Source: an uncultured Chloroflexia bacterium (lineage in GTDB: Bacteria > Chloroflexota > Dehalococcoidia > DSTF01 > JACRBR01). From it: a stretch of 64,000 bases of DNA. The position numbers were made by a program, and so were the translations under genes. Shown here piece by piece: positions 4,595-5,056 of this stretch. The stretch lies in assembly GCA_963701135.1 (NCBI GenBank), contig OY969567.1:2836554-2900553 (forward strand), in the 5' to 3' direction. Every line of letters starts with the position of its first letter. Position 1 is the first letter of the stretch. The notes below the pieces were generated by a model that was not told the origin of the DNA, made no database searches, and was given only the letters and a program-made list of their open reading frames with translations.

Positions 4595-5056
4595 ATGACG
4601 CTCGACCAGCCGACCGACGATGACAGGCAACAGGCCTCTCCCGAGAACGTCAAGAAGATGTGGAAGTTCGTGGAGAAGTTCGCCGGGAAGAGCGGCTCGT
4701 ACCTGCACCCACAGCGCGAGATCACGGAGTTCCTCGTCATCGGCCTCGCCAAACACATCGACGAGGTCGGCCGCCCGTTGTGTCCCTGCAACTTCTACGA
4801 GGACAAGGCGGAAGAGGCGAAGCGGAGCACGTGGATCTGCGCCTGCGAGGAGATGCAGAAGTACAAGTACTGTCATTGACTGCTCTTCTGCAATTCGGAA
4901 GGTCTTCCGATCACGGAGCATTTGCCAGAGGGACACGAAGGGCGCGAAATCTACGGGCTCATCGAGGACCCGCACCCCGATAAGGGCCGCGCGCTCGGGC
5001 GGCTCGAAGAGAAGCAGGGGCGGCACATCGACAAGCGCGGGCACGCGCGGGAGTAG
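4595..5056 (+). CDS. ferredoxin:thioredoxin reductase catalytic-subunit-like protein with in-frame TGA (4877-4879) at a conserved Cys position (possible selenocysteine, or a pseudogene/base error)
   Basis: CPC-x16-CAC-x8-CH[TGA]LLF has the same spacing as the FTR catalytic motif CPC-x16-CPC-x8-CHC-MLF. The frame remains open for 58 more codons (LLFCNSEGLPITEHLPEGHEGREIYG...) to TAG 5054-5056. Confidence 0.7.
4895..4910 (+). promoter_or_regulatory. candidate bacterial SECIS-like hairpin
   Basis: TCGGAA-GGTC-TTCCGA forms a 6-bp stem with a GGUC apical loop closed by A-U, as in the E. coli fdhF SECIS apex (gcAGGUCUgc, from memory). The loop starts 21 nt after the TGA. Confidence 0.5.

Follow-up and report, generated by a model that had tools for sequence, protein, structure and literature searches.

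We analysed a 64-kb stretch of DNA (64,000 nucleotides, hereafter the window) from contig OY969567.1 of an uncultured Chloroflexia bacterium, in which a gene for a homologue of the catalytic subunit of ferredoxin:thioredoxin reductase (FTR) contains an in-frame TGA codon followed by a short hairpin. The window has 68% G+C, with a G+C content at third codon positions (GC3) near 0.9. The features within this gene are as follows (dN/dS is the ratio of nonsynonymous to synonymous substitution rates; Sec is selenocysteine).

4595..5056, + strand: gene for the homologue of the FTR catalytic subunit, 153 residues long when UGA95 is counted as Sec (translation, PF02943, PDB chains, homologues)
4877..4879, + strand: in-frame UGA, the proposed Sec codon (alignment with 1DJ7_A, recurrence, downstream dN/dS)
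4889..4891, + strand: Cys99 codon TGC, four residues past the proposed Sec (U-L-L-F-C), co-varying with Sec state
4895..4910, + strand: apex stem-loop, UCGGAA/UUCCGA at 4895-4900 / 4905-4910 with the loop GGUC at 4901-4904 (folds, comparative pairing, codons)
4881..4920, + strand: two-tier stem-loop with the lower stem at 4881-4886 / 4915-4920 (-12.8 kcal/mol, z=-1.78 over 48 nt)

The gene starts with ATG at 4595, and its TGA comes straight after ...EEMQKYKYCH. Translation confirmed an observation of the first-pass annotation of this DNA, namely that the frame stays open past the TGA for another 58 codons up to TAG at 5054-5056. With U read as C, the protein matched the Pfam family PF02943 (FeThRed_B) with 81.9 bits (cutoff 22, E=4.1e-23) and the solved FTR catalytic chains in the PDB with E-values from 1e-21 to 5e-19. 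Its cysteines follow the pattern C63-P-C65, 16 residues, C82-A-C84, 8 residues, C93-H-[TGA]95; the protein thus has the six-Cys CPC / CxC / CHC arrangement of FTRs with canonical spacing, the sixth position being UGA. The phmmer alignment with the Synechocystis chain 1DJ7_A has no gaps and an offset of 8, and equates C63, C65, C82, C84, C93, and U95 of the window protein with Cys55, 57, 74, 76, 85, and 87, respectively. This alignment bore out both the canonical CPC-16-CxC-8-CHx spacing and the placement of the TGA at the second Cys of CHC, Cys87, which had been put forward from the letters of the window alone. Cys87 of the Synechocystis enzyme is the cluster-proximal partner in the redox-active Cys57-Cys87 disulfide. 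Searches returned more than 1300 homologues, the top ones 75-80% identical to the window protein, and a Cys occupies the TGA position in 22 of 22 aligned full-length homologues.

We assessed the fold on a Cys-containing homologue (P0013, 75% identical to the window protein) as a stand-in for the window protein. Its AlphaFold2 model had a pLDDT (predicted local distance difference test) score of 88 and superimposed on 7c3f, 7bzk, and 1dj7 with a root-mean-square deviation of 1.5-1.6 Å over ~88 residues; on the basis of this model, the window protein is predicted to have the FTR fold, in common with the canonical Cys-type FTRs. The latter (Synechocystis 1DJ7 and 2PUK, Arabidopsis 7BZK) also share the CPC-16-CxC-8-CHx pattern with it, without gaps over ~84 residues. 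Unlike these enzymes, the window FTR has the proposed Sec in place of Cys87, belongs to a non-photosynthetic host, has no recognisable variable-subunit gene adjacent to it, and carries a conserved C-terminal extension of ~50 residues (GLPITEhLPEdHEGREiYG..DKGRALGRLEE) for which the P0013 model gave no structural match.

To follow selection on either side of the TGA we used 97 genes with TGA at this codon (hereafter Sec-forms; genes with TGC or TGT are called Cys-forms), comparing the 41 codons after the TGA with 60 codons before it. The dN/dS ratio was 0.20 after and 0.24 before the TGA, and in pairs of the window gene with its nearest relatives the part after the TGA gave values of 0.03-0.07 at dS of 0.66-1.09. 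Purifying selection acts on the frame past the TGA just as it does on the part upstream. The conserved stretch (LLFC..) begins with the first codon past the TGA, and the earliest in-frame start codon downstream, TTG at 4922, lies past the conserved LLFCNSEGLPITEH. Because of these dN/dS values, the immediate onset of conservation and the late TTG, a terminated product of 94 residues is not what selection keeps.

The TGA recurs at the same codon in many genomes. A scan of one genome per GTDB species with the degenerate pattern K-Y-C-H-TGA-x-L-F gave at least 119 loci, against ~17 matches expected by chance by our own estimate. Among the matches listed, 86 of 119 passed an automatic FTR motif test with TGA at exactly this codon, and three more (L030, L099, and L073) were recognised as FTR by eye, giving at least 89 FTR loci with TGA; in all FTR loci among the matches listed the downstream frame is open and highly conserved. 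The listed metagenome-assembled genomes (MAGs) with such a gene are labelled Dehalococcoidia, Chloroflexi/Chloroflexota, 'Chloroflexia', or Thermoflexus, with two from the Entotheonella group and one unclassified, and the ~30 other listed matches, which lack FTR context, are scattered over Bacteroidota, Firmicutes, and others. A metagenome scan that allowed TGA, TGC, or TGT found 95 genuine FTR genes, 12 with TGA, 63 with TGC, and 20 with TGT. The closest relatives of the window gene (L044, L023, L027, L114, L038, and L054) all have TGA. The 94-residue window product itself falls into a 102-member cluster (90% identity; sequences from NCBI, JGI, ENA, and Logan), whose 94-residue members NCBI names 'ferredoxin-thioredoxin reductase catalytic domain-containing protein' (e.g. 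MHB8377315.1).

At the first redox position, CPC is found in 88 of the at least 89 listed FTR loci and CPS in L073, and a form with two Sec residues is absent from the ~89 listed FTR loci of the genome set. The CPS of L073, a Sec-form, stands at the Cys57-equivalent position, ~90 nt upstream of its TGA; it may be a consensus error of the MAG, and loss of the thioredoxin-attacking Cys would be surprising. We also observed two Sec-form FTR paralogues (L020 and L075) on different contigs of a single MAG, CAMDAY01, whose label, Dehalococcoides mccartyi, looks doubtful at 66% G+C.

The first-pass annotation had also pointed to a hairpin, TCGGAA-GGTC-TTCCGA, 15 nt after the TGA, and we located it at 4895-4910, with its loop starting 21 nt past the UGA. 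The apex A-GGUC-U appears to match that of the E. coli fdhF selenocysteine insertion sequence (SECIS), a stem-loop within the coding sequence directly 3' of the UGA whose apical loop begins with GG ~20 nt past the UGA. In contrast to the fdhF element, the family of the window gene has a short stem, of either 6 bp or 4+4 bp around a bulged A. The usage of the apex codons in this genome is 17.5% for GAA, 6% for GGT, and 5.2% for CTT, and only 1.5% of synonymous recodings folded equally well locally.

We then compared 91 distinct Sec-forms with 83 Cys-forms. In all Sec-forms the loop starting ~21 nt past the UGA is closed by a stem-loop; the loop nearly always begins with GG and is mostly GGUC. 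A stem of 4 bp or longer forms at the apex in 90 of 91 Sec-forms vs 25 of 83 Cys-forms, and the Gly codon is GGT in 80/91 and 14/83, respectively. For the identical peptide E-G-L-P, the codons GAAGGTCTTCC are used by 63 of 66 Sec-forms and by none of 20 Cys-forms (Fisher 1e-16, not corrected for phylogeny). The GC3 of the 15 codons past the TGN codon is lower in Sec-forms than in Cys-forms (0.63 vs 0.76), and the upstream GC3 shows the reverse (0.83 vs 0.76). The Cys-form orthologues of Dehalococcoidia (P0001-P0030, 73-80% identity, and L202) have the length and the C-terminal extension of the window FTR, but their codon is TGC or TGT, their +4 residue is usually Val, they encode E-G-L-P with ordinary GC-rich codons, and they lack the apex hairpin. 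The element is therefore a 3' stem-loop with a G in the apical loop that is kept in UGA forms and absent, at the frequencies given, from the Cys-forms, the properties by which a SECIS is recognised.

The sequence of the stem varies by lineage, from UCGGAA/UUCCGA in the window to CCGGAA/UUCCGG, GGCA/UGCC, and GGGC/GCCC, with GAUG-(bulged A)-GGAA/UUCC-CAUC, GGGGA[CGGGC]UCCCC, and GUAAACCC[GGA]GGGUUUAC as further variants. The CCGGAA/UUCCGG variant entails two amino-acid changes, S..I to P..V. Judged from the aligned genes, compensatory stem changes occur among Sec-forms. A single fixed 6-bp register under-describes the Sec-forms, with 70.8% of cells paired, and we set it aside for a bulged register, which fits better: over ungapped alignments 83.3% of cells are paired in Sec-forms vs 40.2% in Cys-forms. 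The covariation score in this register was 0.189 vs 0.086 in shuffled alignments; none of 500 shuffles reached 0.189 and all slid controls were lower. The same pair-counting test gave no covariation signal in Cys-forms.

The first-pass annotation had suggested looking among orthologues for alternation of TGA and TGC with a hairpin tied to the TGA forms, and this is the pattern we observed: in addition to the difference in apex stems, a neighbour-joining tree of 281 core sequences requires at least 12 Sec/Cys changes. The window gene sits in a large Sec clade of this tree. Nested in that clade is a Cys-form, L124, that has kept a decayed hairpin, GCGGAAGGCCTCCCGA (1611-1658, - strand), and in another clade the Cys-form L192 has a hairpin that is still intact (5338-5385, - strand). 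Both look like recent Sec-to-Cys conversions.

The Sec state is also accompanied by a difference in the protein. A Cys four residues past the TGA codon (+4), Cys99 in the window protein, is present in 63 of 91 Sec-forms vs 1 of 83 Cys-forms, in which the residue is usually Val. The Cys-forms P0013, P0016, and L124, all nested in the Sec clade, keep the +4 Cys, as does P0070 in a different part of the tree, and one Sec clade (CDDMQIYKYCHU...) has Val at +4. The +4 Cys could be functional, as an extra resolving or protecting thiol, or could reflect a nucleotide constraint or the history of the clade. We discarded helical i/i+4 proximity as its explanation, as residues 91-98 are coil in the model.

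We next considered the genes surrounding the Sec-forms. ARAGORN detected a tRNA-SeC gene (anticodon UCA) in ten of the fetched loci, all of them Sec-form FTR loci, at a distance of 0.3-4 kb from the FTR gene:

L011, L017, L018, L020, L049, L089, L105, L144, L183, L210: Sec-FTR loci bearing selC (ARAGORN)

Four of these ten tRNA-Sec genes were matched by the Rfam family RF01852 with 66-74 bits (gathering score 47). In the selC-bearing loci the FTR gene is flanked by genes for thioredoxin and a flavoprotein of TrxR type; in L018 and L183 the genes run in the order PlsX, an HDOD-domain gene, a CsoR-type repressor, thioredoxin, the Sec-FTR on the opposite strand, a flavoprotein resembling thioredoxin reductase (TrxR), an unassigned open reading frame (ORF), and selC. 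No selA, selB, or selD lies adjacent in the selC-bearing loci. A thioredoxin gene adjoins the FTR gene in ~19 Sec-form loci. Dehalococcoidia MAGs with 46 and 49 selenoprotein genes are listed in the paper describing BSepDB (PMC13326102).

Together, the mapping of the UGA to Cys87, the alternation with Cys codons, the hairpin tied to TGA, the downstream dN/dS of 0.20, and selC beside the gene in relatives support the proposal of the first-pass annotation that this is a candidate selenoprotein: an in-frame UGA aligns with a conserved Cys and is followed by a conserved frame. We estimate a probability of about 0.92 that the gene has a genuine Sec-encoding UGA and a coding-region SECIS in an FTR catalytic subunit, as read from comparison of sequences.

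Several observations weigh against this interpretation. The window contains no tRNA gene detectable by ARAGORN, hence no tRNA-Sec; Pfam searches of its ten largest ORFs revealed no sel genes, and a tblastn search using E. coli SelD and SelB as probes gave no match in the window or in any of the 239 fetched loci. The folding energy of the hairpin is modest, with a dinucleotide-shuffle z of +0.82 for 71 nt and -1.78 for 48 nt; for so short a stem energy alone is uninformative, and the significance lies in the comparative and codon-level evidence. Shared ancestry is not accounted for in the Fisher and shuffle statistics. RNAalifold on 77 Sec-forms keeps just two invariant G-C pairs, because the subfamilies differ in register and loop, and an Rfam scan of 4560-5100 returned no SECIS family, its lone match being a chance Actino-pnp hit (E=3). 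In the lower stem (4881-4886 / 4915-4920), 72.5% of cells are paired in Sec-forms vs 74.4% in Cys-forms; this stem is therefore a by-product of the conserved peptide, and we rejected it as a Sec-specific element. Finally, the assembly has indel errors, as seen in GroEL (Cpn60), which is split between two frames (33648-34097 / 33986-35221, - strand).

These assembly errors lead to the first alternative, in which the TGA stems from a substitution error of an error-prone long-read assembly, or from a nonsense mutation that recently turned the gene into a pseudogene; the codon would truly or ancestrally be TGC or TGT, as it is in most FTR homologues, which have Cys at this position. The first-pass annotation had cautioned that the assembly contains many indels and that a lesion at this codon would have to be a substitution; the frameshift in GroEL substantiates the general concern, but an error at the TGA codon itself is very unlikely, because the window carries the Sec-specific synonymous codon pattern. 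Its apex codons GAA-GGT-CTT-CCG are nearly exclusive to TGA forms, and it has the +4 Cys that a single Cys-form among 83 shares. Furthermore, its nearest relatives all have TGA, an identical 94-residue product occurs within the 102-member cluster, and the downstream frame is intact and conserved. We therefore regard an error or pseudogene as highly improbable.

A second alternative accepts that the UGA is recoded, but to a residue other than Sec, be it through SECIS- and SelB-dependent or near-cognate insertion of Cys, Trp, or another amino acid, or through reassignment of UGA throughout the lineage. The inserted amino acid is not readable from a sequence alone, and the 64-kb window of this genome shows no Sec machinery. 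Reassignment is contradicted within the window, where TGA terminates 13 of 30 long ORFs and is therefore not reassigned. The TGA of the FTR gene is the window's sole in-frame stop flanked on both sides by coding signal, and a relaxed scan of the window for further in-frame TGA codons returned gene boundaries or noise alone. Against insertion of another amino acid stand the tRNA-Sec genes beside the gene in relatives, with their UCA anticodon and RF01852 scores, the nature of the site, a redox-active Cys and as such a typical Sec position, and the documentation of Dehalococcoidia as heavy users of Sec (PMC13326102). We consider recoding to a non-Sec residue about as improbable as an assembly error. 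We also looked into Cys insertion at UGA via Sec-like tRNAs and dropped it, the source consulted (PMC5424206) holding no relevant content for these organisms.

Least probable of all is that the UGA is a genuine terminator yielding a 94-residue FTR without its last active-site residue, with the downstream segment untranslated or separately translated: gene callers and NCBI do annotate exactly this product, but it would lack the Cys87 equivalent and hence be unable to make up the redox-active pair, the frame is kept over the 58 downstream codons in ~100 genomes under the selection described above, with conservation right from the TGA, ahead of TTG 4922, and the association of hairpin and TGA would be left unexplained.

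Returning to a Sec-encoding UGA, the position of the residue suggests how the enzyme might work. FTR cleaves a disulfide in two one-electron steps via an iron-sulfur cluster, with Cys87 bonding a cluster iron in the intermediate. Cys57 and Cys87 reportedly make up the redox-active disulfide next to the [4Fe-4S] cluster (Dai et al. 2000, 2007; cited in PMC2398784); Cys57 is said to attack thioredoxin, and Cys87, after bonding the cluster iron in the one-electron intermediate, to resolve the mixed disulfide later. In the window protein, UGA95 would be read as Sec in the usual bacterial way, via SelB and Sec-tRNA(Sec), recruited by the hairpin just downstream inside the coding sequence. Sec would take the place of the cluster-proximal Cys of the redox-active pair, while C65, equivalent to the thioredoxin-attacking Cys57, and the predicted [4Fe-4S] ligands C63, C82, C84, and C93 would stay Cys. 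If the published FTR mechanism is taken as a guide, the enzyme at rest would contain a Cys65-Sec95 selenenylsulfide; on arrival of the first electron from ferredoxin, it would be Se, in place of S, that bonds the unique cluster iron, and once the second electron is in, the mixed disulfide between enzyme and thioredoxin would be resolved by the selenolate. We infer the incorporation of selenium, its chemistry, and the electron donor. The thioredoxin whose gene adjoins FTR in the ~19 Sec-form loci mentioned above is probably the substrate.

FTR is not new to the list of selenoproteins. The first-pass annotation was not aware of FTR-like proteins as a selenoprotein family, and in this it was mistaken: FTR was among seven new selenoprotein families predicted in the GOS (Global Ocean Sampling) metagenome (Zhang & Gladyshev 2008, PMC2398784), later reviews list 'Ferredoxin-thioredoxin reductase, COG4802, CxU' (PMC9312934, PMC13188914), and NCBIfam contains the model NF041072, 'FtrB family double-selenoprotein'. 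The sequences published in 2008 are the GOS reads JCVI_READ_1093012271142 and 841845. The double-Sec FtrB and the window protein belong to the same superfamily (COG4802/PF02943), both have Sec, proposed in the window protein, at the Cys87 equivalent within C-x-U, and in both a SECIS is predicted downstream of the UGA. The former has two Sec residues (CPU and CIU; ...YCPUMPLSG...ICPC...FCIUMFF...), one for each redox-active Cys, whereas the window protein has one (CPC and CHU), with TGC at C65 and TGA solely at position 95. The two are 27% identical over 84 residues, and their motif spacing differs. The double-Sec FtrB comes from marine GOS reads of unknown taxon, and the window form from a member of the Chloroflexota. 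Against the NF041072 equivalog hidden Markov model the window protein scored 34.4 bits, where the cutoff is 160; with this score and a Cys at the first redox position it lies outside that equivalog. It falls into a different subfamily of the same superfamily, with its proposed Sec at one of the same two positions.

A single-Sec FTR with canonical spacing is not described in the searchable literature, and the homology-based pipeline of BSepDB may already include it. We tentatively suggest, with the odds somewhat against it, that the single-Sec, canonical-spacing FTR of Chloroflexota and Entotheonella is an undescribed subfamily with an origin separate from that of the double-Sec FtrB. If so, it would be distinguished by selenium at the cluster-proximal residue alone, with a transient Fe-Se bond and a Cys-Sec selenenylsulfide in catalysis; by a gene history with at least a dozen Sec/Cys switches; and, in some lineages, by a cluster with thioredoxin, the TrxR-like protein, and selC together with the extra Cys at +4.

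The kind of protein is thus already known, FTR selenoproteins having been predicted in 2008, and the single-Sec form occurs widely in Chloroflexota, where public annotation systematically cuts it short. In ~90 or more species-level genomes and many metagenome contigs the gene is deposited as a truncated protein of 94 residues, and NF041072, the sole curated FtrB selenoprotein model matched in NCBIfam, does not capture the window protein. A dedicated model would mend the truncated records and raise the selenoproteome counts of Dehalococcoidia. A Sec87 enzyme found in nature alongside close Cys orthologues, one of them syntenic, would offer a way to probe what selenium contributes at a position that interacts with the cluster, and the repeated Sec/Cys switches with gain and decay of the hairpin form a compact data set on the evolution of a SECIS inside a coding sequence. 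Current understanding is left unchanged, and specialists in selenoproteins would not find the result surprising.

The FTR gene of the window is preceded, 36 nt upstream, by a gene for a redox-sensing repressor:

3914..4558, + strand: Rex-type redox-sensing repressor gene (Pfam CoA_binding and Put_DNA-bind_N)

This Rex-FTR order is common to the Sec-forms L114, L038, L027, L073, and L054 and to the Cys-form L202, whose Rex is 84% identical to that of the window and whose FTR gene has TGC, Val at +4, ordinary codons, and no hairpin. The position of Rex suggests NADH/NAD+-responsive control of the FTR gene in this sub-lineage. The 64-kb window contains no thioredoxin gene. On its other side, the FTR gene faces a LuxR-type two-component system.

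Heptamer repeats and a hairpin lie in the convergent gap that separates the FTR stop codon from the response-regulator gene. A tandem repeat of TCAGCTA (6.7 copies, 97% matches) at 5101-5147 is preceded, from 5064, by degenerate GTCAGTC-like units and followed by a partial inverted array of CAGCTGA (4.7 copies) at 5231-5264, and a GC-rich hairpin with a U-run lies between the two arrays at ~5167-5189. The TCAGCTA repeat is unique in the window, with 0 occurrences expected by chance. Elsewhere, the window has multi-kb stretches without clean long ORFs, for example at 1-3913, 5883-8954, and 35222-41058.

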